This document shows, in pieces, positions 10,324-31,762 of a stretch of 43,420 nt of DNA. The position numbers and the translations under genes were made by a program. Positions within the stretch are counted from its first letter, which is position 1. Each line of letters starts with the position of its first letter. Under the pieces are notes generated by a model. It was not told the DNA's origin and did not search any database. It saw only the letters and a program-made list of their open reading frames with translations. Source of the stretch: Kagunavirus LM02P1; sequence record OZ035819.1. The stretch is one strand, 5' to 3'.

Positions 10324-10736
10324 TGGGCTACTTTGAGGACTTAACCAAAGCGTTCGATGTGCCGCTGGTAGCCTTCGGAACCACCAACGGCATCAAGGTC
10401 GCGCTTGAGAACATTGACGCGCCGACGTCAACCAATACGCCGTATCTGGCGAGTTACATGTTGCTGGCGGATACCGAGCAGGCGGATTTGTTCTTCACGG
10501 AACAACGCGCCGGTGTTTATCAGGTAGACATTAACTACGCATCGGTGAAAGGTAGCGCGCCAATCAATAAAATGGCAGACTTACTTAACACGGCGTTTAA
10601 AGCAGGTAAGTCATTTTCACGTAACGACATCTGCGCCGAGGTTCAATCGGTTAGCCTGGGGCCGCTGATTGTAGAAAACGGATGGGCCAAAAGACCATTG
10701 TCAATTAACTTTATTGCATTCACCAAGAGGCTGTGA
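10320..10736 (+). CDS. tail completion/terminator protein (putative)
   Basis: 138-aa ORF between gp10-like gene and major tail gene; ATGA overlap. Confidence 0.4.
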   Translation: MMGYFEDLTKAFDVPLVAFGTTNGIKVALENIDAPTSTNTPYLASYMLLADTEQADLFFTEQRAGVYQVDINYASVKGSAPINKMADLLNTAFKAGKSFSRNDICAEVQSVSLGPLIVENGWAKRPLSINFIAFTKRL

Positions 10737-11905
10737 ATATGGCTACAACTCCTTTTAAGGGCGCGACTACCGCGCAATTCTATGTGGCGGAAGTCACCCC
10801 GGGCGTAACACCGACTAACCCGGTATGGTCGCCGTTGCGTAACACAGGTGGCGTTCCTGCGATCACCCGCGACACGCTGACCTCCAACGAACTGGACGGC
10901 AGCCGTGAAACTACATCCATCCGCACCGGTAACAAACAGGTTAGCGGAGAATACGCCATCGAGCTTAGCTCGAAAAGCCAGGACGACTGGCTGGCGGGTG
11001 CTTTAGGCTCTACGTGGCAATCTGGTGTTTCCCTGTCCAGTCTGTCGATTACGGTCGCACCGGCGGGCAAGACGTTCACCCGTGCTGATGGCAGCTTTAT
11101 TACTGACGGCGTTGAAGTGGGCGACCTGATCGCGTTTACCGACTTGACGGGCGACAACGCAAAACCGTTTATCGTTACTGCGGTAGAGGCACTGGTAGTT
11201 ACCGGTGCGGGTATTCAACACACTCTGACCACCGAGACCGCTACTACCGCGGCTAAGACCGGCGACAAACTGGAAACTGGTAACGCGTGTAAGACGTTCT
11301 CTATCCTCACCTGGTACAAAGGCCAGTGCGGTGGGGCCGACGCGTACACACTGACCAAAGGTGTGGAAGTTTCTGGTTTCACTGTCGAGCAGGCTGTTAA
11401 CGCGATGGTAACAGGTAGCTTCCCGTTCATCGGACGTAGTCAGGAGATTCTCACCGAGCCGCCATCTGGTTCTGACTTCTCCTCTGTTACGTTTGGTGAT
11501 GAGCCGTTCTCCTCAGTTGACGTTTCTGTGTTCGATGGCTCTACGCCGTTGCGTTGCGATAGCCTTACCATCACCAACGACAACAGCGCGTCCGCACAGT
11601 TCGAACTCGGCAACACTAACGTTGCGTTTGTGGAACGTAGCCGCGCAGCTAACACCTTCTCCATCTCCGGTAAGCTGTATGACATGGCGATGATTCAGAA
11701 GTTTATCAACGAACAGCAGGTAGAGATTAACTCTATTCTGGCCGGGGTAAACGGTGCTATGTCTTTCAGCCTGAAACGTGCGGAACTTACGGCGGTTACG
11801 CCAGAGATTGGTGGGCCTGAGTCAATTACTCAGTCCATTGAAGGCCAGGCTACCGGTAACCAGTACCAGTCATCTATTGTTATTCAGCGTATCACCTACG
11901 CATAA
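10733..11905 (+). CDS. major tail protein (putative)
   Basis: 390-aa ORF, last structural gene before the chaperone/tape-measure block; followed by terminator. Confidence 0.5.
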   Translation: MNMATTPFKGATTAQFYVAEVTPGVTPTNPVWSPLRNTGGVPAITRDTLTSNELDGSRETTSIRTGNKQVSGEYAIELSSKSQDDWLAGALGSTWQSGVSLSSLSITVAPAGKTFTRADGSFITDGVEVGDLIAFTDLTGDNAKPFIVTAVEALVVTGAGIQHTLTTETATTAAKTGDKLETGNACKTFSILTWYKGQCGGADAYTLTKGVEVSGFTVEQAVNAMVTGSFPFIGRSQEILTEPPSGSDFSSVTFGDEPFSSVDVSVFDGSTPLRCDSLTITNDNSASAQFELGNTNVAFVERSRAANTFSISGKLYDMAMIQKFINEQQVEINSILAGVNGAMSFSLKRAELTAVTPEIGGPESITQSIEGQATGNQYQSSIVIQRITYA

Positions 11906-11909
11906 AACT

Positions 11910-11935
11910 AAGGCCCCTTCCGGGGCCTTTTTCTT
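11910..11935. terminator. bidirectional intrinsic terminator
   Basis: Hairpin AGGCCCC-ttcc-GGGGCCT followed by TTTTCTT; same hairpin family recurs at 4337, 22745, 25394 and 28778. Confidence 0.65.
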
Positions 11936-12107
11936 ATTCCTTCAATTGCATAGGGTAGAAGTTAACGAGTTCTCCTTTATCCCGAAGCTGTGAACATTCA
12001 TCTAACGCGTCTTCCTGGCTACTTACGGCATAGATATCATCCCACTCGTCCCATTCTTTGTCGTATACACGGATTACATATATTGTTTTCATTATAGTCT
12101 TACTCAT
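11934..12107 (-). CDS. small acidic protein (57 aa)
   Basis: ATG at 12107 with AGGAG RBS; D/E-rich (EWDEWDD...EDALDE); last gene of antisense island. Confidence 0.4.
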   Translation of the reverse strand: MSKTIMKTIYVIRVYDKEWDEWDDIYAVSSQEDALDECSQLRDKGELVNFYPMQLKE

Positions 12108-12330
12108 CAATATTACTCCTGTACTCCCGTAACTTCTCCAGACTTTCAATTGCTTCTGCCAAGTCTGTTCCGGTGTCCTTGTGACCCCGCAAGCCCATAC
12201 ACAGCAGTTTCTTTAAAGCATGCTGTAACGCCGGGTCGCGGATATCGAAGGCGCGCAGCACATCATAAACGTCTACTGTCATAGTGCTGCCGTGAGTGTT
12301 TGTCATTGTGCGGTTGTATTTATTTGTCAC
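12100..12330 (-). CDS. small hypothetical protein (76 aa from GTG; internal ATGs possible)
   Basis: Minus-strand ORF with overlapping start/stop coupling to neighbours. Confidence 0.4.
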   Translation of the reverse strand: MTNKYNRTMTNTHGSTMTVDVYDVLRAFDIRDPALQHALKKLLCMGLRGHKDTGTDLAEAIESLEKLREYRSNIDE

Positions 12331-12520
12331 TGTTAACTCTCTTAAATCTGGCTATGCCTGACTCGTTAATGTTGCCTATTTCAAAGAAGCTGCGATATTT
12401 AGGCGAATACATTTTTACATCGCCATTCTCTAGGGTGACCCCTTCATATACAGCACCTACTTCGAATCCATTTTTCTCCGCGTACGGACTAACCTCGGTA
12501 CATTCATACATGTCTTTCAT
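12320..12520 (-). CDS. small hypothetical protein (66 aa)
   Basis: ATG at 12520 overlaps the stop of 12517..13647 (ATGA coupling). Confidence 0.45.
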   Translation of the reverse strand: MKDMYECTEVSPYAEKNGFEVGAVYEGVTLENGDVKMYSPKYRSFFEIGNINESGIARFKRVNSDK

Positions 12521-13647
12521 CCCAGCATCTCCGGTGAAATAGTTAAACGTGCGACCTCGCCATATTCGGCGCTATAAGTAATTACATTTGCACTGCGGCC
12601 TGACATCCATCCGCCGCGGGAGGCGTAGGCGTCTTTAGCCGCTAAGGTGCGGTGTTGCTCAACAACCATGTTACGGCTTTCTACAATCTTCTGATGGTGC
12701 AGGTGGCCCACGTGGGCGTAGCTATAGGCACTCTCACCGAACGCTTTGCGGAACTTGGCAATCATAACCGGTTCGATAGCGTCGAAGCGTGCTTTATGTC
12801 CGTGATGAAAGAACAGCGTAGTTTTGCCGTGTTGTACCATCTTGTAAACATCCGGCGACGTATCGACGAACACACGCGGCTCGTTGTCGTACAGCGTACT
12901 GAACATCTCGGCTAACCAAATCATACCCGATTCGTCGTGGTTCCCTTGCACGATAAGCAGTCGGACGTTTTTATGTTTAACCAGTGCCATATCAACAACA
13001 CGGCGAACCATACGAATCATGTAGCGTACAAGTTTCTGATAGCGTGTGTCCGCATCAAGAACATGACCACTCGCTGGCGTAACTGCGTCCAGACTATCGA
13101 AGTGCGCAAGGTCGCCGAGCAGGTTAATAACTCCTGTTCCCGCGTCCGGTGCTTTCTGAAACGCCGCGTCGAACCATCGGGAGAACAGGTCTTCAGCAAT
13201 CTTCATATCCCAGTCGTCGCCGCTTTCATCGGCCCAGGCCAGCATACCGAGATGGAAATCAGATACCGTGTAAAGATTAAGTAGCTTGTCGTCGCGTTTG
13301 GCTCGAGTCGCTTTAACAGGCGCAACCGGCGTAATCTCTGACTTCATACCTTCGATTACGGCTTTCATCAACTCGACCTGACGTTCGGCGTCGGTGTCAG
13401 TCTTAACCCATTGCAGTTTGGTGTTGCCGAACTCATCCACCAGTGACGACGTCCCCTTAATCTTGTAGCCGTCCGGCACAAGGTGACTAACGTCGCGCCC
13501 GTGGCCTACGCCTTTCTTTGCCAGCTTCGCTTTACGGATACGAATAACGCGGTCTGAGATGCCGTATTTACGGGCGATGTCTACATTCTTCATCCCGGCG
13601 TTCAATTCTTCCTGTAACTGCTCGTCGGTTATTTTCTTCTGGGCCAT
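12517..13647 (-). CDS. HTH domain fused to calcineurin-like metallophosphoesterase (SbcD/Mre11-like or phosphodiesterase-like)
   Basis: 376 aa; N-terminal HTH NVDIARKYGISDRVIRIRKAKL; full metallophosphatase motif set SDFHLG, GDLAHFD, GNHDE, HHGH, GHLHH; RBS GAGGAAG. Confidence 0.7.
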   Translation of the reverse strand: MAQKKITDEQLQEELNAGMKNVDIARKYGISDRVIRIRKAKLAKKGVGHGRDVSHLVPDGYKIKGTSSLVDEFGNTKLQWVKTDTDAERQVELMKAVIEGMKSEITPVAPVKATRAKRDDKLLNLYTVSDFHLGMLAWADESGDDWDMKIAEDLFSRWFDAAFQKAPDAGTGVINLLGDLAHFDSLDAVTPASGHVLDADTRYQKLVRYMIRMVRRVVDMALVKHKNVRLLIVQGNHDESGMIWLAEMFSTLYDNEPRVFVDTSPDVYKMVQHGKTTLFFHHGHKARFDAIEPVMIAKFRKAFGESAYSYAHVGHLHHQKIVESRNMVVEQHRTLAAKDAYASRGGWMSGRSANVITYSAEYGEVARLTISPEMLG

Positions 13648-13685
13648 GCTTACTTCCTCGTGTTTAGGATTTGTCCTATACTAGC

Positions 13686-13892
13686 TCACTTCTCTTTGAC
13701 ATTCGAGTTGCACGCCCAGATTAAAATAAATACCCACGGCAGCAGAACCCAGCCAAGAAACAGATTAGCCATGAATATCGCTAATTTCGCTTTATGGTCG
13801 CGGAAATATGCAACCAGAAACGGCGCGAAATAAGCGAGCAGTGCAAACAGAATTAAGGAAACTGGTAAACTTGACATTTTAAACCCCTTCAT
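13686..13892 (-). CDS. small 2-TM membrane protein, superinfection-immunity (Imm)-like
   Basis: 68 aa; two hydrophobic helices around YFAPFLVAYFRDHKAKLAIFMANLFLGWVLLPWVFILIWA, matching the Imm-type signature as I recall it; first gene after promoter. Confidence 0.5.
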   Translation of the reverse strand: MKGFKMSSLPVSLILFALLAYFAPFLVAYFRDHKAKLAIFMANLFLGWVLLPWVFILIWACNSNVKEK

Positions 13893-13907
13893 TGTTGGTG
13901 TAAGTGA

Positions 13908-13936
13908 ATAGTACCCTATTATATTGGGGTGCGCAA
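13908..13936 (-). promoter_or_regulatory. sigma70-type promoter (TTGCGC-N17-TACTAT) for the antisense island
   Basis: Spacer identical to promoter at 4676-4704; sits 16 nt upstream of the ATG at 13892. Confidence 0.55.
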
Positions 13937-14043
13937 GTAATGTGATAGAATAATTTTGCGCCTAGTGTCGCACACGAAAAGCGGGTGGTTCCCGTCTGGC
14001 GCGTCAACCTTAACCTGTAACCTCTTAACCAAAGGATTAAAGA

Positions 14044-14460
14044 ATGAAACTTTCCGATTTTTATTACGAAGCTGAAGCTGAAAAGGGTGCACGTATGCCG
14101 ATACCATTAAAAGACGGTACCGATTCCGGGGAATGGCTTAATGTTGTTTCTCCTGAGGCAGACGTTGCCGTTAAGGCTATGCGCGCGTTCACCCTTGCAT
14201 ACCGGGCAGTGTTAGGGAAATTAAAACCGCTTCGTGATAAGTGCGAAGAGATGAAAGATTTCTCTGAATACAACCTGAAGATGGAAGACGCGGCGACGGA
14301 CCTTAACCGCCAGTTAGCACTTGAACTGGTTAACGGTTGGAGTCTCGACGATGAATTTAATAAAGAGAACCTGAATACTCTTTTCTCACAATATAAACGC
14401 CTCGCTGAACACGTTGTTGTTTTCCACAACGAACAGCTTCACCAATTGCAGGAAAAGTAG
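14044..14460 (+). CDS. tail assembly chaperone (G-like, putative)
   Basis: 138-aa acidic ORF immediately upstream of tape measure gene; RBS AAAGGA. Confidence 0.5.
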   Translation: MKLSDFYYEAEAEKGARMPIPLKDGTDSGEWLNVVSPEADVAVKAMRAFTLAYRAVLGKLKPLRDKCEEMKDFSEYNLKMEDAATDLNRQLALELVNGWSLDDEFNKENLNTLFSQYKRLAEHVVVFHNEQLHQLQEK

Positions 14461-21081: not shown

Positions 21082-22551
21082 ATGTCAAGCGGATGCGGTG
21101 ACGTTTTAAGCCTGGCGGATTTACAGACCGCCAAGAAACACCAGATTTTCGAAGCTGAGGTTATCACCGGTAAATCCGGCGGCGTTGCTGGTGGCGCTGA
21201 TATTGATTACGCGACAAATCAGGTTACGGGGCAGACTCAGAAGACCGTGCCTAAGGTTATTTCAGACATCGGCATCGAGCGAATCGGCGACTTCACGAAC
21301 GGAGGTACGGTCACTGCAAGAAATCAGGGCATGTTGGAGGAGGGTGGGTCGGTGTACACCTGGCGCGGTTCCCTGCCGAAGGTAGTACCGGCTGGAAGTA
21401 CTCCACAGTCAACCGGCGGAATATACCCAAACGGGGACTGGATTGACGTAGGCGACGCTACCATACGCTCGGTGCTTAATGGCCCGGACGGGACGGGACT
21501 GAATTATTTCTTCGGTGGTGGGGGATGGGCCGGAGAAAATGCTGCGGGTGTTAATATATACAATAACGACACTATAACCTACGACAATGCCCTCCGTCAG
21601 CGATTTTCAATACCGGATACCGCTAATCCTCTCCCAATAGAGTGGCTCGAGAAGGTTACATCCGCTACCCGCGAGGACGAGGTGAAAAGATGGGAGCAAG
21701 GTTGTTCTTACCATTCCCTCACTAAAGTTAGCGGTTCCGCATACGGGGCCACAGATACCTCAGTAGCCACCCATTCGTCTGGTACAGGGCAACTTATTGC
21801 TAAGCATATGCGCGGTGAGTCCCGTCACAGTAATGCAGAGACGTGGGGGGGATGGTCATATGGCGCGGTTCTTGGTGAAGCAATCGATACAGGTGCCAAA
21901 AGCACTATTGCACATGAGTTTAACCTAAATAACCGCGGCCCCGACATGGGGTGGATGCAGAATGCTGTTGATGGGAGCACAAGGGGGCTTGTATGCGTAA
22001 CCCAAGACAATAGTAACCCGGTAACACAGATGCTTGTGATAGGGAGAGGTTCCGCGGCCCCTAATGGTTATATATGGACCGGTGCACTTTTTCGGGCTAA
22101 CTCTTTTGTTGCCCCAACTGAGCCATTAACAGAGGTCGGGAACGGGGAGGCTATTAGACTCGAGGGGAGTTCAGTGCTTTTGGTGTCCAACGGTATAAGA
22201 TTCCGCGGTGGCGCATTTAGAACCGGTATTTCGTTGACAGAAAGTACGTTTTCCTCAAACTGCGCAATTTTATTAGGTGATAACCAACGAATTACCGTAG
22301 GTACTGGTCCGGCAAACACCACATATCTCGCGTTTAACCGGTCCGAGGGGTGGGTTGATTTTTCTAATTTAAATATACGCTTGAATGGGACAAAAATTTT
22401 AGGGCCACGTGTTACGGGGATAAACCAGTTAACCGGAACCGCCGACGGGGTTTCAAAAAACACCGAGACTGTTACCCTGCAAGAACTGGCCCGTTATGTT
22501 AAAAAGGTTACAGACGCCCTGATTGCTCATGGTATAATGGGTCCTTCTTAA
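21082..22551 (+). CDS. tail fibre/spike (receptor-binding) protein
   Basis: 489 aa, Gly/Thr/Asn-rich, last large gene of late operon; RBS AGAGGA. Confidence 0.55.
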   Translation: MSSGCGDVLSLADLQTAKKHQIFEAEVITGKSGGVAGGADIDYATNQVTGQTQKTVPKVISDIGIERIGDFTNGGTVTARNQGMLEEGGSVYTWRGSLPKVVPAGSTPQSTGGIYPNGDWIDVGDATIRSVLNGPDGTGLNYFFGGGGWAGENAAGVNIYNNDTITYDNALRQRFSIPDTANPLPIEWLEKVTSATREDEVKRWEQGCSYHSLTKVSGSAYGATDTSVATHSSGTGQLIAKHMRGESRHSNAETWGGWSYGAVLGEAIDTGAKSTIAHEFNLNNRGPDMGWMQNAVDGSTRGLVCVTQDNSNPVTQMLVIGRGSAAPNGYIWTGALFRANSFVAPTEPLTEVGNGEAIRLEGSSVLLVSNGIRFRGGAFRTGISLTESTFSSNCAILLGDNQRITVGTGPANTTYLAFNRSEGWVDFSNLNIRLNGTKILGPRVTGINQLTGTADGVSKNTETVTLQELARYVKKVTDALIAHGIMGPS

Positions 22552-23088: not shown

Positions 23089-24509
23089 TTCTTACCTCGT
23101 CTCTTCATGTAATTAAGCAACTCTTCCTGTACTGATTTCTTCTCGTCTGTACGCGCGGAAACAACCTCATCCAGCGTGTCTTTAGCGACGATGTGATAGA
23201 GGAACACCGGGCGCTCGTGACCGGCCTGTTTCTGACGAACGGGCCCTATGCGTTCTACAACCTGTAAATAATGCTCAAGGTTCCAGCCTTGCGAAATAAA
23301 CGCCAGATGATGCCCGCCGTCCTGTAAATTCAAACCATGCCCGGCTGACGCAGGATGAACGCATAATATTTCGATTTCACCTCTGTTCCACGCTTCCATC
23401 TGTTTATTACCCTTAGCACCTTTGGCGAACGCCTGTGCCTGCGGGAATCGTTTCAGGATGCGCTCAAGCTCATGCTTGAACTGGTAGGCCACCAGTAACG
23501 GCGCACCCTGCAATTCCTCAACAATGGACTCCAGTGCGTCCAGTTTCGTGTCGTGCACTTTCTCCCAGTCTTTGGTCGCTTCGCCGTCTGGCCCTGACAC
23601 ATACACGGCACCAGATGCAATCTGTAGGCACTTCGACGTCTTCGCAGCGGCGTTAGCCGCTTCAACTTCCCCGCTCTCCAGTTCTGCGAATAGCTTTTCC
23701 TCCATATCGATGTACGCCTGACGTGCTTTCTTCGGCAGGTCAATTTCCACGGGCACGATAATCGGCGCTTCACATCCAAACCACTCGGCAGCATCAATCG
23801 TTAGACTAATGTCCTTCATCTTCTGGTGAATCTCGGTATCCGCTCCCGGGCGAGCGTGATACTCCCGCGCCATCGCGGATTTACCTTTCTGTACCGAGTT
23901 AAACCAGCGGTCGGTGAATGCCGTGTACGACGACCCCAGGCGCTCGCCCGCGTCGATAAACCAGTTCTGACCCCACAAGTCTTTGAGGCCATTTGGCGAC
24001 GGGGTGCCAGTAAGGTTAATGAAACGCTTAACCTTTCCGAATGCCACCTTACTGAGCGCCTTTGCTCGCTTGCTTCCACCAGAACGGCTACGGAATGATT
24101 TCAGCTTCGTGCTTTCATCTGCGACGATAACGGTAAAAGGCCAGTCGTCTTTGCCGTAGTAGTCAATCAGCCACTCGATAACTTCGTAGTTCGTACACAC
24201 TACGTTAGCATCGGACTCAAGCGCCGCGATGCGGCGCTTTTCTGAACCAGTTGCATCGACGACATTCAGGCAGGGGAATTGCCATTTCTCTTGTTCTGCC
24301 GGCCACGTACCGGACGCAACGCGCAACGGGGCGAGGATTAACACACGGTCCTCTTCAGTAAGCTGCCCGTTACGGAACAGTCGGTTTAATGTCCACAGTA
24401 CGCTGCCGGTCTTCCCGGCGCCCATGCTTGCCCATATGTTGCAGCGATGATGTTGCAACATGAACGAAGTCATGAGTTTCTGGTACTCGCGCCTTTGAAA
24501 CTTAGACAT
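23085..24509 (-). CDS. SNF2/DEAD-like superfamily 2 helicase
   Basis: 474 aa; Walker A ASMGAGKT, DExx-type box VIVADESTKLK, C-terminal helicase domain. Confidence 0.8.
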   Translation of the reverse strand: MSKFQRREYQKLMTSFMLQHHRCNIWASMGAGKTGSVLWTLNRLFRNGQLTEEDRVLILAPLRVASGTWPAEQEKWQFPCLNVVDATGSEKRRIAALESDANVVCTNYEVIEWLIDYYGKDDWPFTVIVADESTKLKSFRSRSGGSKRAKALSKVAFGKVKRFINLTGTPSPNGLKDLWGQNWFIDAGERLGSSYTAFTDRWFNSVQKGKSAMAREYHARPGADTEIHQKMKDISLTIDAAEWFGCEAPIIVPVEIDLPKKARQAYIDMEEKLFAELESGEVEAANAAAKTSKCLQIASGAVYVSGPDGEATKDWEKVHDTKLDALESIVEELQGAPLLVAYQFKHELERILKRFPQAQAFAKGAKGNKQMEAWNRGEIEILCVHPASAGHGLNLQDGGHHLAFISQGWNLEHYLQVVERIGPVRQKQAGHERPVFLYHIVAKDTLDEVVSARTDEKKSVQEELLNYMKRRGKK

Positions 24510-25185
24510 GATTAGCCTCGTAAACTGCTTTTGCGAAACCCCGCGGGGTAAGGCTGCGGATTGTTTTTGTCCTCACCGATTTACCGCCTAATTTATTGTG
24601 TTGGTCAGAATACTCATCATCCACAGCAACGACTGACTTAACCGGCATTACGAAACCATTACCTGTCCAAAGACATGTCTTTTTAGGGTACGCGTCCCTC
24701 GGTTTTATGTACTCTGGGAACATTGGATGTGTGTCGTCTTCGGGTAAATAGCCGCCGTATTCGTACGGGTTGAACGTGTAGTCAGGCTTACGCCATAAAG
24801 ACGAAAGAACGCTAACCGGATTCTCAATCATATAGGGCACGTTGTACCTTTTAGCCAGACGCGCCGCCACTTTGCATGTAATCACGGCCTCTACCTGAAA
24901 AGTTGGATTCTTCTTCCGCTTCGTTTCAAAATGCGCCGCGCCGCTAACGGCTAAATCTGTGCACGGAGGGAACGCGAAAATAATATCCGGTGCAACCTCG
25001 AAGTCGAACTTATTATCAATCCACGCGTTTATATAGTGAATGTTCTCGTGTTCAACTTTTGCACCCAATCGCGCGTAGTCGCCGTGGTCGGCGCCGTCGT
25101 AGTTGAAACAATAGCAAGTATGGCCTGCTTCCGCCCACGGTTGGGCCATAAGGCCCGAACCGTCAAACAATGACCAGACAATCAT
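24502..25185 (-). CDS. compact DNA cytosine-C5 methyltransferase-like protein
   Basis: 227 aa; motif I-like LFDGSGL, motif IV-like DIIFAFPPCTDLAVSG (Pro-Cys dipeptide), motif VI-like MIENPV; no obvious target-recognition domain. Confidence 0.5.
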   Translation of the reverse strand: MIVWSLFDGSGLMAQPWAEAGHTCYCFNYDGADHGDYARLGAKVEHENIHYINAWIDNKFDFEVAPDIIFAFPPCTDLAVSGAAHFETKRKKNPTFQVEAVITCKVAARLAKRYNVPYMIENPVSVLSSLWRKPDYTFNPYEYGGYLPEDDTHPMFPEYIKPRDAYPKKTCLWTGNGFVMPVKSVVAVDDEYSDQHNKLGGKSVRTKTIRSLTPRGFAKAVYEANHV

Positions 25186-25373
25186 TTTGCCACCAGCACC
25201 AGTTCTTTACGCCCGAACGCCGTAACGTTGCCTGTTACATCTTCGATAACCAGTTTACCGTTCGACTCGACGTACACCGTATCAACGGCAGCCGGACGTC
25301 GGGTCTTAACGTTGAAAATCATGTCGCCCGGTACGATGTCACGTGCGGGTTTGCGGTCATATTCGTGTTTCAT
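25182..25373 (-). CDS. hypothetical protein (63 aa)
   Basis: Coupled to the methyltransferase-like gene. Confidence 0.4.
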   Translation of the reverse strand: MKHEYDRKPARDIVPGDMIFNVKTRRPAAVDTVYVESNGKLVIEDVTGNVTAFGRKELVLVAK

Positions 25374-25412
25374 TTCTCAATTCCTTATAGTTAAGGCCCC
25401 GAAGGGCCTGTA

Positions 25413-25667
25413 TTAGTTAGATAATTCGCCTTGAACTTGCTTAATAAGTTCTCTGGCCGTTGTGAAGTCTACGGACAGCCCTTTAGCGACGTCTTCCGCA
25501 AGCACCTTGTGACCAACTGACCCGAAGCCCAGGATACGGTTTACTTCCGAAACCTTCATAGACCATGAGTAATTAACTGACGCCCCTGTGTATTTACCGA
25601 TACGAACAGATGAATCGATTGAACCAATAATCATGGTGTTTACTGACAGTTGAAGTTCGATAGCCAT
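25413..25667 (-). CDS. hypothetical protein (84 aa)
   Basis: ATG at 25667 downstream of promoter 25702-25730. Confidence 0.4.
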   Translation of the reverse strand: MAIELQLSVNTMIIGSIDSSVRIGKYTGASVNYSWSMKVSEVNRILGFGSVGHKVLAEDVAKGLSVDFTTARELIKQVQGELSN

Positions 25668-25668
25668 T

Positions 25669-25983
25669 TTATAATTCCTTATATTGTTGGGGTATGTGCT
25701 TACTATAATAGTCTGCTATTAGGGTGTCAATCTGTTTTATCGAACCAACGACAAAAACATTTGCGCCACGTTTGCGCATCCGCTCATGCTCACGTAGCTG
25801 GTGGGGGTCAGGCTTCGTGTTTTCGTCTTTCTTAACCTCGACGAACCAGACGACGCCGCCGGGGAGAATTGCCAGCAGGTCGGGGGCGCCGGAACGCCCC
25901 TCGTAGGAAAGTTTACGAACGAGGCCACCAAGGGCCTCGAATCGCTCCTTTGCATATTTCTGTATTTTGCCTTCCGGGGTCAT
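25669..25983 (-). CDS. VRR-NUC domain nuclease (PD-(D/E)XK fold)
   Basis: Motif GAPDLLAILPGGVVWFVEVK (D...E-V-K core); ATG at 25983 preferred over upstream TTG at 25998. Confidence 0.65.
   Translation of the reverse strand: MTPEGKIQKYAKERFEALGGLVRKLSYEGRSGAPDLLAILPGGVVWFVEVKKDENTKPDPHQLREHERMRKRGANVFVVGSIKQIDTLIADYYSKHIPQQYKEL
25702..25730 (-). promoter_or_regulatory. sigma70-type promoter TTGACA-N17-TATAGT inside the 3' end of the VRR-NUC gene
   Basis: Near-consensus hexamers read on minus strand; would drive 25413..25667 and downstream genes. Confidence 0.5.
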
Positions 25984-26214: not shown

Positions 26215-26346
26215 TCATTCCAGCACCCACAGATAAATTGCGATGAACATGCCCAGTACGGCGGCCATCATGCTGTATTGACCCTCGTGGCAGTAGACAC
26301 CGGCGGCGAATCCCGCCAGTACCGCGATAATAAGTTTACTTAGCAT
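26215..26346 (-). CDS. small membrane protein (43 aa)
   Basis: ATG at 26346 overlapping the 3' end of the polymerase gene; hydrophobic. Confidence 0.3.
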   Translation of the reverse strand: MLSKLIIAVLAGFAAGVYCHEGQYSMMAAVLGMFIAIYLWVLE

Positions 26347-28609
26347 AGCGGTACACCTCTTCCCCAGCCCATGTTAACGGGAACCCTTCAGCCCATTCAG
26401 GTAATGCGCATAGCAGGTCACCCATCTCTTTAACCGTGTACTCCGGCGTATCTGGCGTTTCAGCCACACATTCGTCGTGTACGTGGAGCACAATCGGGTA
26501 GCCCGCCGCCTCGACCGTCAGGAGTCCGTTAACTAGTAAGTCACGGCACAACGCCTGGATGATGTTTTCACACAATTTTCCGCCGTGGGTGTACAAAGTT
26601 GTCCACTGGCGGGTGGTCTGATTCTCACCCTGGTACTTGATGCGGACGTTAGTAGTGACACGCCCATCCTCGTCAGTTTCTTTAGTAACGCTCAGACCTA
26701 TGCCGGGGTATGACATGATGCGCCCCGACGGCAGTTCCACGCACAACCACCAACCCGGCACAAAGTTACCCTGTCTGTCTTTCTCTTTAGTACGCCAGAT
26801 GCGGATGGCTCTGTCGCCGTTAAGGCGTACTCGGGCCCCCGCCCAAAACTCTCGTCCCGGATTTCTAATGGCGGCTATCACCGAATCCTTAAGGTCATTC
26901 CAGAATTTCACTGTTTCCGGATGGGCTTCCCGCCACATGCGCTTAATGGCGTCACAGGTGCGCCAGACTTCTTTAGGCAGCACATAAGAGGCCCGTTCAT
27001 CTTTTTTACCAGGCTTTGGCGGGCGTTTAGCCTCCTGAATTCTGGCCCATTCGTAGCCACGGGCGGTAGCCGCCCAAATGTGGTCGGGGAACGTGCCCCG
27101 CATTGTCTCTGTCATTTTAAAGAGGTCCAGCCCGTAAGTTTTAGCCATAGTCATAAAAGCCCCTACGCCCCCCTCGTAGCCGAGGCCGAGTTCGCAACAT
27201 TTCCCGACCTGACGTAGGTCCTTACGGGTGGCTTTTAGTTCTACGGGGTCCATGCCGAACATCTTACCAGCTGTGGCGCAATAGATATCAATCCCCGCGC
27301 GGAACGTCTCAAGGGCGGACGTCTCCCCCGCCGTCCAGGCTAGCCCGCGCCCTTCCACGTTTGAGTAGTCGGCAACGAGCAACTTATTACCTTTTTCCGG
27401 GATGATGCAACTGCGGACAGTCGAGGCCGTTAGTTTAGACACATCGAAACGGCGATGCGCCCGGCCCTTTAAAAGCAAATTGATGCCAAATGATAGCGGG
27501 TTAAGCCTGCGGTTCCAGTCTTCGTCGGACTCCCACGGCTGGCGCACAAGTTTCTTTTCCTCGTTAGTCGGGTCGTCGTGGTAGTACCCGCGCGACAGGT
27601 TCTGCGGTTGGAACCCTTTACCCGCAAATCGTAAAGTGCGCTTTGCCCCACCGTACTGGATGCAACCGCGGCGGCGGCCGTCTTTGGACCGTCCTAGCAG
27701 GAGCGGTTTGTATTTTGTCGACGCCGTGGAGGCCGCGCCGAGGCGCATCTCAATGATTGTGCGCGCATCGTCAGGTAAGTCGTCGTCCTCTAGCAAACCT
27801 TCGAGCGTTGCTTTCTGTGCATTATAGATATTGTAGGCCGGTGCCAGCTCCCGAAGGATTGGCAGGAAGTCTTTACCCGTTAGCTTCCCGCCAAATTTAG
27901 CCCTGGCCTCGTTTTTTAGCTCTTGCTTGTGGCGTTCAACTGCTGCTACCGCCGCCTCAGCAAGAGCCGCATCAACAAAGAAGCCTCGGTCGTTGATTAA
28001 CTGGTCAAGTTCAAGTACACGGTCCTCGAAATCGGAGTTACCCCAACGTGGCAGCTTATGGAAGACTTCACGCATCGCTGTGATGTCGCTCACGGCGTAC
28101 TTGATGAACAGCGCCCACTCGTCCGGGTGCGTCTCCGCGGTGTAGCGGCGGATTTTGTAGTTCTTCGGCGTCGGTTTAGAAAAACGCTGAATCAGCGCCT
28201 TACCGCGTTTGTCTTTCGCATTGTCCGCAGATACGCCCAACACTTCGCACAATGCGTCAAGTGAACCCGGCAGCGCGTGACGAAACGCCCAAATCATCGT
28301 ATCAATGGTGTTGCTTACCGGAATATCAAAGCCCCAGCAGTGCTTCATGATGAGTCTGTCGAACATTGAGCCGTTGTGCCACACCATCTTAATGCGACTG
28401 TTAGGCTTAACCAGACGGCGTAACGCGCGGTGCAAATCCCCCGGCATGTCGCTGCCGTTGGTGCAATCCCACACCTGCACAGGCTCGTCGTCAAAAGCGT
28501 ATGTACAGATAAGGACTTCTGTGGTTGGGTGTTCGGCGTAAGCGTAGGAGCCGACTTTCTTTAAATCGGCTTCGGAGAATGTTTCAAAGTCAAGGTATAA
28601 GTAGCTCAT
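26336..28609 (-). CDS. family A DNA polymerase with 3'-5' exonuclease domain
   Basis: Exo I YLDFETFS; Pol motif A LLVADYSNVEGR, motif B RQVGKCCELGLGYEGG, motif C VLHVHDE; ATG at 28609 with AGGAAA RBS preferred over TTG at 28663. Confidence 0.85.
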   Translation of the reverse strand: MSYLYLDFETFSEADLKKVGSYAYAEHPTTEVLICTYAFDDEPVQVWDCTNGSDMPGDLHRALRRLVKPNSRIKMVWHNGSMFDRLIMKHCWGFDIPVSNTIDTMIWAFRHALPGSLDALCEVLGVSADNAKDKRGKALIQRFSKPTPKNYKIRRYTAETHPDEWALFIKYAVSDITAMREVFHKLPRWGNSDFEDRVLELDQLINDRGFFVDAALAEAAVAAVERHKQELKNEARAKFGGKLTGKDFLPILRELAPAYNIYNAQKATLEGLLEDDDLPDDARTIIEMRLGAASTASTKYKPLLLGRSKDGRRRGCIQYGGAKRTLRFAGKGFQPQNLSRGYYHDDPTNEEKKLVRQPWESDEDWNRRLNPLSFGINLLLKGRAHRRFDVSKLTASTVRSCIIPEKGNKLLVADYSNVEGRGLAWTAGETSALETFRAGIDIYCATAGKMFGMDPVELKATRKDLRQVGKCCELGLGYEGGVGAFMTMAKTYGLDLFKMTETMRGTFPDHIWAATARGYEWARIQEAKRPPKPGKKDERASYVLPKEVWRTCDAIKRMWREAHPETVKFWNDLKDSVIAAIRNPGREFWAGARVRLNGDRAIRIWRTKEKDRQGNFVPGWWLCVELPSGRIMSYPGIGLSVTKETDEDGRVTTNVRIKYQGENQTTRQWTTLYTHGGKLCENIIQALCRDLLVNGLLTVEAAGYPIVLHVHDECVAETPDTPEYTVKEMGDLLCALPEWAEGFPLTWAGEEVYRYAK

Positions 28610-28761
28610 TTCTTTTTCCTTAAATCTAGTGCCTTCGTTTCGCTGAGTCTTATTTTCATACAATCACGGCAAATCCACACATGCCGGTATCCGGCCCGGT
28701 ACTTATCCGCGTACCACGGAAGAGGTTTCATATAGCGATAAACGTGCTTACAGAAAAACAT
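28606..28761 (-). CDS. small Cys/His-containing protein (51 aa)
   Basis: ATG at 28761; CKH...CRDC; stop TGA overlaps the polymerase ATG (ATGA coupling); coordinates checked by hand translation. Confidence 0.3.
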   Translation of the reverse strand: MFFCKHVYRYMKPLPWYADKYRAGYRHVWICRDCMKIRLSETKALDLRKKK

Positions 28762-28820: not shown

Positions 28821-29447
28821 TTAACGGCGGCGACGTTCGCGGCGCGGTGCGTCATCTTCTTCGTCGTCTTCCAGGTCATTGACGCTTGCAGCGACTTTAG
28901 AACCGCCAAACGCTTTACCTTCGCCGACGTATTTAATCGCCAACAGGTTAACTCCGAGGACTTTGTATTTCTGGCTGAACCAGATTTCTACGCTTACGTT
29001 AGCAACGCAGCCGCTGTAAACCTGTTCGCCTTCAATCTGTTCGCCGTCTACGTTGAAGTCCTGCTCTACCTGAGTCTCACCTTTTTTAGAGGTTACAATC
29101 AGTGGCTGTTTCTGTGCTTTCGCTTTGAAGTAGAAGCCTTCCGGGAAGTCTTCAAACGGATTGTCGCGCTCGGCAATGTCTTTAATAGCGCATTTATCCA
29201 TGTGCTTACCTTCGCCGTAGTTGGACTTCATCCATTTCTCGGCAGCAGCTGCGCCTAACGCCTCTTCAACTACAGCGTAAACCGTGTCGTAGAGTGCGTC
29301 GATTTGAGCATGGTCGGACGGCAGGATAATAGTTGCGCTGTACTGGCCTTTAGTGATTGAGCCATCATCGTTTTCACGGTCTTTTTCGCGTTCGAATACG
29401 TTAACCCAAGCAGTGTTTACTTTACGCAGATTTAATTTCAGTCCCAT
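28821..29447 (-). CDS. single-strand DNA-binding protein (DUF2815-like)
   Basis: 208 aa with acidic C-terminal tail DLEDDEEDD typical of SSB; own near-consensus promoter; adjacent to DUF2800-like nuclease. Confidence 0.55.
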   Translation of the reverse strand: MGLKLNLRKVNTAWVNVFEREKDRENDDGSITKGQYSATIILPSDHAQIDALYDTVYAVVEEALGAAAAEKWMKSNYGEGKHMDKCAIKDIAERDNPFEDFPEGFYFKAKAQKQPLIVTSKKGETQVEQDFNVDGEQIEGEQVYSGCVANVSVEIWFSQKYKVLGVNLLAIKYVGEGKAFGGSKVAASVNDLEDDEEDDAPRRERRRR

Positions 29448-29499
29448 TTGATTTCTCGCTTTTCAGTTTACTCCGGGAACTGCCCGGCCAGTGATTAGA

Positions 29500-29528
29500 A
29501 ATATAATAGCTAACTATTCAGGTGTCAA
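29500..29528 (-). promoter_or_regulatory. sigma70-type promoter TTGACA-N17-TATATT for SSB gene
   Basis: Near-consensus hexamers read on minus strand, ~50 nt upstream of the ATG at 29447. Confidence 0.6.
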
Positions 29529-29791
29529 CCCTTCCATCCAGTTATTTTCTCAACTATCAATACGTATTCGAAAGGCCACTCCAAATTCTGCACCCATTTA
29601 ATTTCCTTCGTCTGGTCCAGTTGCTCGGGGTCTACCGTTTCATACTTAATCGCAACGTAGACCGTTAGTGGAAGAAGGATAATTAGAAGCGGCACTAACA
29701 TTGCCCAGTAACAAACAAATGCCACAAACCCGCCAAATACCCTGAACGTTTTACGAATCATTTCAAATCCTCCTCTGTTACCCGATTCCAC
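29525..29791 (-). CDS. small membrane protein
   Basis: Hydrophobic segment FVAFVCYWAMLVPLLIILLPLTVYVAI; start uncertain (overlaps nuclease gene end). Confidence 0.35.
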   Translation of the reverse strand: MESGNRGGFEMIRKTFRVFGGFVAFVCYWAMLVPLLIILLPLTVYVAIKYETVDPEQLDQTKEIKWVQNLEWPFEYVLIVEKITGWKG

Positions 29792-30999
29792 TCAGGCCGT
29801 TTGTCGTCTGCCGTTGCAACGCATGGTGCGCCTGGCTTACGGGTGATGAAGTCTTTCAGTTCTTCTTCCGGTATTACTTTAACCGCTTCGGTAGGGGTCA
29901 TGAGCACTTCTTTAGTCAGCTTGTCGCCGTAGAGTTCTGCCACTTTCTCTGCGTCTTTCCACGCACGATTACCCGGCCTGCCTTCAACCAACTTGTACCC
30001 CGGCACTTTCTTACCGGAATGCAAAGCGGCGGCCATAGCTTTCTCAACCTTGTCGATGTGCTGGCGCAACAACGGCAACTTCTCATACTCAGATACGAGT
30101 TGCTCCGGCGTAAGTTCCAGTGCAAAGTCATCTTCCAGTTCTCCGGCCAGTACCGAATTAACGGTTTTTGTACGCGCGGCGCACTGTTCAGAGAACCGGC
30201 ACCACTGACAGCCATCGACCGACGGCCTGAAGTCCGACGCCTTCAGGTTCTTCTTACCGCGGAAATAGGCATCAAGAGCCAACAGCGCGCGTTTCTGGGC
30301 AAACTTAGCGAACAGCTCCAGCCCCTCAGCCGAGATGTCCCACTCCGACGCGCCACCCGCGTACGGCTGGAAGATAACCAGGCGAACTGTTGTTATGTGA
30401 TAACGTCTCTTGAGTCGGCGATAAACACCGAGAGCATAGAGCATAAGCTGTTTGTTTTCTTTCGCTTCGACACGATGCCGCCCTGTTTTAAGGTCGCCAA
30501 TAATTAGCATGTGCTCGTCTGTGTTCGCCAGCTCCTGGACGGCAACAAGGTCGGCGGTTCCGAATGTCTCGACGCCTTCGTAACCTGGATGCAGCACCTC
30601 AGTAAGATTGACGCGCATCTCCAGTTTTGCGTAAGTAGCCACGTCGATAATCGCTTTGCAGTAGTCGGTGTACTTTGTACACTGGTCAATCATGTCCGCC
30701 GTAATAAGTACCGCGCCTTTCATCGGACTGATTAGCGCCTTAATCTGGCCTTTACCCTCATCCAGTACATATGCACCTACTTCACGTGCTAACGGTAGCG
30801 CAGTTCCGCGGATATAGGCATTTAGGTGCACTTCTGCGATTGTATGACATGCGGTCCCTGTAACGGCAGCTTTACCCGATTCGTTAGGAATGTCTTTTTC
30901 ACACGCCAGTGATGCGGCACAGGTAAGCCACTTTTTAGCACCTGATGGCGACAGTAAGGCGTGCACATCGTTATTGCCGCCGCGTTCTTTTAAAATCAT
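29758..30999 (-). CDS. PD-(D/E)XK nuclease, DUF2800/Cas4-like
   Basis: 413 aa; N-terminal LSPSGAKKWLTCAAS motif as I recall for this family; sits between SSB and primase as in many phage replication modules. Confidence 0.55.
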   Translation of the reverse strand: MILKERGGNNDVHALLSPSGAKKWLTCAASLACEKDIPNESGKAAVTGTACHTIAEVHLNAYIRGTALPLAREVGAYVLDEGKGQIKALISPMKGAVLITADMIDQCTKYTDYCKAIIDVATYAKLEMRVNLTEVLHPGYEGVETFGTADLVAVQELANTDEHMLIIGDLKTGRHRVEAKENKQLMLYALGVYRRLKRRYHITTVRLVIFQPYAGGASEWDISAEGLELFAKFAQKRALLALDAYFRGKKNLKASDFRPSVDGCQWCRFSEQCAARTKTVNSVLAGELEDDFALELTPEQLVSEYEKLPLLRQHIDKVEKAMAAALHSGKKVPGYKLVEGRPGNRAWKDAEKVAELYGDKLTKEVLMTPTEAVKVIPEEELKDFITRKPGAPCVATADDKRPEWNRVTEEDLK

Positions 31000-31493
31000 T
31001 TCTCGGCTCCGTTAACTGTAAACCCGTATTTAATTTCGGCTTGCCTACGAGCCTTAGCCGCGTTCTCTAACCTATCGTAAGCACCTAAATAAATTGGCGC
31101 CCCATCTACATAAATTCTGGCGACCCACTTACCAGAGCGTTTATGAAACCCAACGCCTTTAACACCTGAAGCATTGTCAGTCCGTATTTTGGTGCCGTGG
31201 GCGATACTACCTCGTCGCATTTTTATAAGATTTTCTATTCTGTTATCAGTTCTATCTTTATTTGCGTGGCGAATTACTTCCCCTGGCGCTATCTCCCCAT
31301 TAAACATCTCCCAAACCACGTGGTGGATAAGTTTAGTAACCCCGTTAAAACGTAGTATTTTGAATTCACTTCCGTCGTTATCCACCCTCACACTCCCAGC
31401 TTCTTGGCCTATTTTTACCGATTTTGATGGTCTTATCTTCCAATACAATTTCCCTGTGACAGGGTCGTAGTCAAACAGTTCATGCCAATTCAT
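30996..31493 (-). CDS. HNH homing endonuclease with C-terminal AP2 DNA-binding domain
   Basis: HNH region HHVVWEMFNG...IRHANKDRTDNRIENL; AP2-like region GVKGVGFHKRSGKWVARIYVDG; ATG at 31493 with GGGAGG RBS; locally AT-rich by eye. Confidence 0.7.
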   Translation of the reverse strand: MNWHELFDYDPVTGKLYWKIRPSKSVKIGQEAGSVRVDNDGSEFKILRFNGVTKLIHHVVWEMFNGEIAPGEVIRHANKDRTDNRIENLIKMRRGSIAHGTKIRTDNASGVKGVGFHKRSGKWVARIYVDGAPIYLGAYDRLENAAKARRQAEIKYGFTVNGAEK

Positions 31494-31762
31494 ACCCTGA
31501 CCTCCCACTGGTCGATTAAATGCCGTGTCTTATGGTCACAATGCATCGCCCAGCTATACATCGACTCGAAGACATAAAAGTCACTTTTAACGAAAGTCGT
31601 GCGCTTAATCTGCGACAGGTGACGGCCTATATCTTTCGGCTTTGGTACTTTGCCTAAGAACGCCATCTCTTCCATCTGGTGCGCACCCGACGGCGCACGT
31701 AACAGCCACAACACCTCTGTGTTATCCCGGCGGTCGATGCCGCGGTAGAGTTGGTAAATCAT
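31490..31762 (-). CDS. hypothetical protein (90 aa)
   Basis: Stop overlaps HNH start (ATGA coupling). Confidence 0.4.
   Translation of the reverse strand: MIYQLYRGIDRRDNTEVLWLLRAPSGAHQMEEMAFLGKVPKPKDIGRHLSQIKRTTFVKSDFYVFESMYSWAMHCDHKTRHLIDQWEVRV

Follow-up and report, generated by a model that had tools for sequence, protein, structure and literature searches.

Gene and domain structure

The 43,420-nt stretch of DNA analyzed here (the window; record OZ035819.1, Kagunavirus LM02P1) carries at positions 12517-13647 a complete gene whose 376-residue product joins an N-terminal helix-turn-helix (HTH) to a metallophosphoesterase (MPE) core. The gene region is 89-91% identical in DNA sequence to that of Kagunavirus phages such as Snoke. 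The window is collinear with Snoke, with terminase, portal, capsid and tail genes, a replication module on the opposite strand and then lysis genes; it represents a Kagunavirus (Guernseyvirinae) genome that is almost complete. An earlier interpretation of this DNA, the sequence-only reading, gave the correct coordinates for the gene but no strand. The list of open reading frames (ORFs) places it on the minus strand, and a plus-strand gene in the same interval is ruled out by stops throughout that strand. The assignment is based on the ORF list, a full-length match to PHROG 704 and homology to phage T1 gp16. The ORF begins with ATG and ends with a stop codon at 12517-12519, and its ribosome-binding site, GAGGA, lies ~8 nt 5′ of the start.

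The binuclear MPE core comprises residues 119-376 (12520-13293, minus strand). Motifs I-V are SDFHLG (residues 129-134), GDLAHFD (178-184), GNHDE (235-239), HHGH (281-284) and GHLHH (314-318). Conservation was examined across 98 aligned representatives of the family (32-50% identity). Residues D130, H132, G178, D179, N236, H237, H282, G314 and H317 were invariant (98/98), and H182, D184, H284 and H315 were conserved in at least 89%. Since the metal-ligand residues are invariant across 98 homologs, the active site is real and selected, not a chance collection of motifs. An AlphaFold2 model built from the same alignment had a mean predicted local distance difference test (pLDDT) value of 93.3 and a predicted template modelling (pTM) score of 0.81; the core, with pLDDT values of 95-99, adopts the alpha/beta-sandwich MPE fold. 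The Pfam models PF00149 and PF12850 scored below their gathering cut-offs (18.5 versus 21.5 bits and 21.8 versus 27 bits, respectively), and just 23 and 15 of the 98 homologs matched them at E<0.01. The PHROG 704 family is a divergent MPE lineage lacking a Pfam model of its own.

Residues 5-45 (13513-13635, minus strand) span a tri-helical HTH, with its three helices at residues 8-44 of the model, which we assign to the LuxR/NarL/sigma-4 type and predict to bind DNA. A weak match to phrog_836, ‘late transcriptional activator’, covers residues 5-36 (E 9.6e-4). The HTH is carried by 96% of family members and occurs as two tandem copies in longer variants. Its pairwise identity is 24%, compared with 40% in the core, and it thus evolves faster. 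In the model, a flexible, low-confidence segment (residues 46-58) is followed by a conserved span, residues 59-103 (13339-13473, minus strand), that contains a family-specific beta-hairpin (61-85) and a helix (87-103); a second short connector (104-118) leads to the MPE core. The hairpin-helix consensus is KGxSTLYxxxGxxxxQWVKT, with W80 and G74 each kept in 93 of the 98 sequences. A Campylobacter-phage homolog without the HTH still keeps this module. The sequence-only reading had named all five motifs, which are borne out, and a sigma-r4-like HTH, with which the tri-helical model is compatible. The ‘linker’ of ~100 residues that it placed between them is mostly a conserved, folded module.

Family membership and structural relatives

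The protein matches PHROG 704, named ‘DNA repair exonuclease’, with an E value of 2.7e-167 (residues 3-375 against profile positions 1-389 of 390). T1 gp16 (ST16, YP_003929.1) is 45% identical across all 376 residues (E 2e-115) and has the same architecture, with HTH, hairpin-helix module and MPE core all conserved. The family name ‘DNA repair exonuclease’ that gp16 shares is a homology-based guess. A search of a database clustered at 90% identity gave 3,570 matches, the best 120 of them at 97-99% identity. Among clusters at 50% identity there were 4,649 matches at E≤1e-3 and 1,152 at E≤1e-30; nearly all were 370-420 residues long, and their alignments also span the former ‘linker’. Representative matches mostly aligned from residue ~25-35 to residue 375. 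By tblastn the family was found in 2,040 of 50,697 phage records (~4%), including phages of Escherichia, Klebsiella, Salmonella, Vibrio, Campylobacter, Flavobacterium, Rhodobacter and Ruegeria. A Drexlerviridae pangenome places the gene in a module retained by 508 of 522 phages (PMC13164509).

Among 5,426 complete E. coli genomes there was no DNA-level match to the gene, and only five ‘plasmid’ records matched, four of them phage-sized (44-50 kb). By these searches the family is therefore essentially restricted to phages, and an origin from a resident E. coli prophage or plasmid is ruled out. Depositors do not agree on a name; those in use (phosphoesterase, DNA repair exonuclease, DNA polymerase II small subunit, oxidoreductase and hypothetical protein) form a misleading mixture. 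Rather than an oddity of the LM02P1 genome, the gene is an ordinary and highly conserved representative of a catalogued but uncharacterised phage family. A literature search turned up nothing on the biochemistry, genetics, fitness effects or temporal expression of any member, and the gene is not mentioned in a transposon-essentiality preprint, a Lamassu preprint or a survey of viral replication. A transcriptome of Kagunavirus K1B4, sampled in a coarse 5-120 min series, classes the adjacent Imm gene as ‘late’ and does not mention the MPE gene; its supplements list host genes only. CRISPRi-ART fitness data for PTXU04 are inapplicable because that phage, with 92 coding sequences and a 2,198-residue polyvalent protein, is not a Kagunavirus.

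In order to place the core among MPE branches, the model was compared with solved structures. The best score, 16.2 over 211 aligned residues, was obtained with DP1, the proofreading exonuclease subunit of archaeal DNA polymerase D (PolD). T. maritima Mre11 scored 15.2 and S. aureus SbcD 15.0, with further Mre11/SbcD entries at 12.5-13.6. Other MPEs scored 14.0 (LpxH), 13.7 (MJ0936), 12.6 (GpdQ), 12.3 (Rv0805) and 12.1 (the ADPRibase-like structure 2nxf), and the lowest listed scores were 9.3 for the P. putida nuclease MPE and ~9 for PPP protein phosphatases. In these model-based comparisons the nuclease branch (PolD DP1, Mre11 and SbcD) ranks at the top, by a modest margin. A Foldseek search of viral models returned other uncharacterised phage MPEs only. 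PADLOC defence-system models gave no matches at E≤1, and a relative among known defence components was therefore rejected.

Sequence comparison gave sub-threshold matches. A direct search of the PDB with the protein gave no meaningful match. With the family profile, the MPE matches among all PDB sequences were T. maritima Mre11/SbcD (E 0.13-0.37) and the P. putida ‘Nuclease MPE’ (E 0.63), none of them significant. In these alignments four motif blocks coincide, and the family GDxxH182 falls on GDLLH of Mre11; the protein therefore has the Mre11-type motif II, GDxxH. The histidine equivalent to H182 is H52 of P. furiosus Mre11, which is implicated in exonuclease action. Other MPE families have Asp, Glu or Asn at this position. 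The PPP signature set (GDxHG, GDxVDRG, GNHE; lambda-PP/NinI) is not present in the protein, and the class III cyclic-nucleotide phosphodiesterases CpdA and Rv0805 are not its closest neighbours in either structure or sequence.

The sequence-only reading had described the core as Mre11/SbcD-type and as also compatible with class III phosphodiesterases. The second suggestion fares less well, with Rv0805 at 12.3 against 16.2 for DP1. The first holds in part: the nearest structures are nucleases, with SbcD above Rv0805 and the PPP phosphatases, and GDxxH is present. However, the model has no C-terminal capping domain of the Mre11/SbcD kind after the phosphoesterase domain, and the best similarity is not significant (E 0.13, T. 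maritima Mre11), with no Pfam or NCBIfam SbcD/Mre11 match. A Rad50/SbcC gene is found neither among the large ORFs of the window, as that reading had noted for the vicinity, nor in the annotation of the compared parts of syntenic Snoke. For these three reasons the protein is at best functionally like the Mre11/SbcD branch and not a member of it. Relative to Mre11/SbcD and T4 gp47, it lacks the capping domain and the Rad50-binding region and has the HTH and hairpin-helix module instead. PolD DP1, a 3′-5′ exonuclease, is only 12% identical; LM02P1 has no DP2-type partner and its polymerase belongs to family A.

Gene context and possible role

In LM02P1 the gene comes second in a minus-strand cassette of five genes (11910-14043). 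The cassette is inserted into the tail operon of the plus strand, where its neighbours are the genes for the tail tube (10733-11905) and a tail assembly chaperone (14044-14460). The first cistron (13686-13892, minus strand) encodes a T4 Imm-like superinfection immunity protein (Pfam Imm_superinfect, 48 bits versus a cut-off of 27.9; phrog_1039). A sigma-70-like promoter candidate, ATCACA-17-TATAAT (13918-13946, minus strand), matches the consensus at 10 of 12 positions, and such sites are no more frequent here than in shuffled sequence. No convincing palindrome that could act as an autoregulatory operator was found 5′ of the cassette. At 12517-12520 the MPE stop codon overlaps the start of the following ORF in the sequence ATGA, which suggests translational coupling. 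A bidirectional intrinsic terminator (11910-11929, both strands; 8-bp stem with six GC pairs), annotated at the same place on both strands of Snoke, closes both the tail-tube operon and the cassette.

The three small ORFs 3′ of the MPE gene (66, 76 and 71 residues; 11934-12520, minus strand) come from the ORF list and have annotated equivalents in Snoke. They have no Pfam match, and only the 76-residue ORF matches PHROG families, all of unknown function. The matches of this ORF (12100-12330, minus strand) are confined to the C-terminal ~70 residues of families that are far longer, namely positions 150-220 of 235 in phrog_2452 and 171-237 of 246 in phrog_17613, ‘ATPase’; the ORF could be the remnant of a gene or a C-terminal domain that stands on its own. 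Jerseyvirus S528 keeps the order Imm then MPE at the same place (55% identity) and has a Rha/ANT antirepressor-like gene in place of the downstream small ORFs.

Elsewhere the surroundings differ. Drexlerviridae, including T1, carry the gene 3′ of the helicase region and upstream of the lysis cassette, whereas in Guernseyvirinae it lies in the tail module with Imm. A gene for a deoxynucleoside monophosphate (dNMP) kinase or a ‘polynucleotide kinase’ often follows it in Drexlerviridae (PMC13164509). In a Vibrio phage the homolog is located 3′ of the gene for SSB, the protein that binds single-stranded DNA, and in a Campylobacter phage it lies 3′ of an ATP-dependent DNA ligase gene and near a Holliday-junction resolvase gene. 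Many lambdoid-like contigs have the gene in a nin-like region, where genes for a replication initiator and DnaB lie upstream of it and those for a Q-like antiterminator and terminase downstream; its closer company there includes NinG/Rap, a MazG-like pyrophosphohydrolase and HNH/EndoVII. Among 52 diverse IMG/VR loci, collected with a 13-sequence subset of the 98-sequence alignment, no neighbour family recurred in more than nine, which rules out a conserved partner. Given these differing neighbourhoods and the lack of a recurrent partner, the protein is a standalone enzyme that travels with genes of DNA and nucleotide metabolism. P. putida PdeM and lambda NinI are likewise standalone MPEs. PdeM, a Mn2+ DNA endonuclease, is associated with a ligase, as is the Campylobacter-phage homolog, and the nin-like position in lambdoid-like contigs is analogous to that of NinI.

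The sequence-only reading had offered two hypotheses, a DNA-targeted nuclease for host takeover and a phosphodiesterase that degrades cyclic nucleotide immune signals. On balance we think that the protein is a DNA nuclease; host takeover as its specific role is a more tentative proposal. The two-metal active site would act as a Mn2+/Mg2+-dependent DNA exo- or endonuclease, and the HTH would hold the enzyme on duplex DNA through the short flexible segment and the hairpin-helix module. It would act alone, without a Rad50/SbcC-like ATPase or any further obligate partner. The DNA of the host (or other DNA that is not the phage's) would be broken down, shutting off the host and feeding dNMPs into phage DNA synthesis; in Guernseyvirinae the gene would be co-transcribed with the Imm-like gene from the minus-strand cassette in the tail module. 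In a more speculative variant of this reading, such an HTH-guided, partner-free, Mre11-like nuclease would destroy host DNA selectively and spare the phage genome.

Precedents for this role come from other phage MPEs. T5 A1, a putative metallophosphatase described as similar to double-strand-break repair nucleases and polymerase proofreading subunits, is reported to be necessary and sufficient in vivo for degradation of host DNA and to need no further viral factor for it (bioRxiv 10.64898/2026.04.02.716235). A Cluster A MPE with five motifs, Gp48 of mycobacteriophage A10ZJ24, has phosphodiesterase activity, is toxic to the host and disrupts host genomic DNA (PMC12287305). In addition, a T1-like phage is restricted by a defence system that senses N6-methyl-deoxyadenosine monophosphate (m6dAMP), which implies that such phages break down host DNA. 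Breakdown of host DNA with nucleotide salvage is favoured on account of these two precedents and the m6dAMP-based restriction. Escape mutants of the m6dAMP-sensing systems map to denA of T4/T2/T6 and not to the PHROG 704 family.

The shared role would be analogous, not homologous, to that of A1 and Gp48. A1, a plausible functional analogue, is 556 residues long, belongs to a PHROG of its own (phrog_1745) and is largely confined to Demerecviridae. Specific homology to it was rejected: hhalign gave a probability of 18.8% and aligned 19 columns at motif III, the only motif included, the PHROGs are separate, and A1 lies outside the top 50 viral fold matches. Compared by motif position, Gp48 has motif I from residue ~10 and thus no HTH or hairpin module.

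A nuclease could instead serve the phage's own DNA. Working without Rad50, it would process ends, hairpins or flaps in the manner of Mre11 and so support replication, recombination-dependent replication, repair or the processing of concatemers. The name ‘DNA repair exonuclease’ used in databases fits such a role, as do neighbours that include NinG/Rap, DNA ligase, Holliday-junction resolvase, SSB and helicases, a conservation as wide as that of a housekeeping gene, and the position in lambdoid-like contigs where lambda has its nin recombination and repair genes. T4 gp46/47 is used in recombination and host-DNA breakdown alike. LM02P1, however, has its own recombination pair at 28821-30999 (minus strand), a phrog_69 exonuclease of 413 residues beside a gp2.5-like SSB/annealase; the Snoke counterpart of this exonuclease (414 residues) is annotated as hypothetical only. 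T1 has RecE and Erf. Because each phage has a separate exonuclease-annealase pair, the MPE protein is unlikely to be the main recombination exonuclease, and breakdown of host DNA becomes its most likely role. The 52 loci without a conserved partner of any kind, and the place of the gene in Guernseyvirinae, which is not the replication module but a moron-like cassette shared with Imm, also argue against a role on phage DNA, which we regard as possible but doubtful.

Readings in which the protein is not a nuclease are less likely because of the points against each. It is improbable that the protein hydrolyzes immune signals (CBASS cyclic GMP-AMP and cyclic triadenylate, Pycsar cyclic mononucleotides or Thoeris ADP-ribose-derived signals) with the HTH as an Aca-like autorepressor. 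Immune-signal phosphodiesterase families score below the nuclease branch in structure and give no sequence match at E<10. The promoter region of the cassette has no operator-like palindrome, some members have duplicated HTHs, and the gene is near-universal in Drexlerviridae, with moderate conservation of its core (40% pairwise identity), unlike fast-evolving and patchy anti-defence genes. Phages are not known to have an anti-signalling enzyme of the MPE type. If this reading were true, the protein, retained in Drexlerviridae and Guernseyvirinae, would be the first viral enzyme of the MPE type to hydrolyze nucleotide immune signals. We give still less credence to 3′-end healing, in which a 2′,3′-cyclic phosphodiesterase or 3′-phosphatase would act with polynucleotide kinase or ligase at breaks inflicted by defence systems, like the MPE domain of bacterial Pnkp. 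The ‘polynucleotide kinase’ genes 3′ of the gene in Drexlerviridae (PMC13164509) and the ligase next to the Campylobacter-phage homolog are consistent with it. For T1, the idea that the MPE provides a 3′-phosphatase missing from a kinase-only enzyme is ruled out, since the ‘polynucleotide kinase’ is itself a HAD phosphatase domain. This protein, ST64 (L087 4948-5478, 176 residues), comprises only a HAD-type PNKP 3′-phosphatase domain (Pfam HAD_PNKP, 62 bits); with no kinase domain, its deposited name is misleading. Least probable of all is a protein phosphatase equivalent to NinI/lambda-PP, or a protein that is mainly a transcription factor with a regulatory MPE domain. The nin-like position in lambdoid-like contigs, the HTH and the weak phrog_836 match fit this idea, and the lambda nin region carries its own MPE phosphatase, NinI; the PPP signatures and PPP-like structure scores, as described above, do not fit.

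If the protein is a host-chromosome nuclease of T1-like and Jersey-like phages, it would add a third, independent lineage to the MPEs employed in host takeover, next to T5 A1 and Gp48. It would also be where the dNMP/m6dAMP danger signals that Metis and PUA-Cal-HAD detect are likely to come from. Among enzymes whose role is unknown, the family is one of the most common in siphoviruses of the coliphage type, and it is present in both Guernseyvirinae genera examined. For the window itself, the practical outcome is a corrected annotation of strand, domain map and family.

Other features of the window

No tRNA genes were found in the 43.4-kb window. The family A DNA polymerase ORF (26336-28663, minus strand) encodes 775 residues, compared with 741 in Snoke. 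Residues 486-581 match phrog_93, ‘endonuclease’, and divide the matches to polymerase PHROGs in two; this stretch could be an inserted element or a mere profile artefact. The replication module also contains, on the minus strand, genes for a DNA methyltransferase (24502-25185, phrog_757) and an HNH endonuclease (30996-31508, phrog_99). The Snoke annotation has no genes so named at matching positions, and the two may be variable or mobile insertions. The ORF 3′ of the J-like tail-tip gene encodes 489 residues (21082-22551, plus strand), compared with a tail fibre/tailspike of 790 residues in Snoke (23491-25863). This difference fits swapping of receptor-binding proteins among Kagunavirus isolates.
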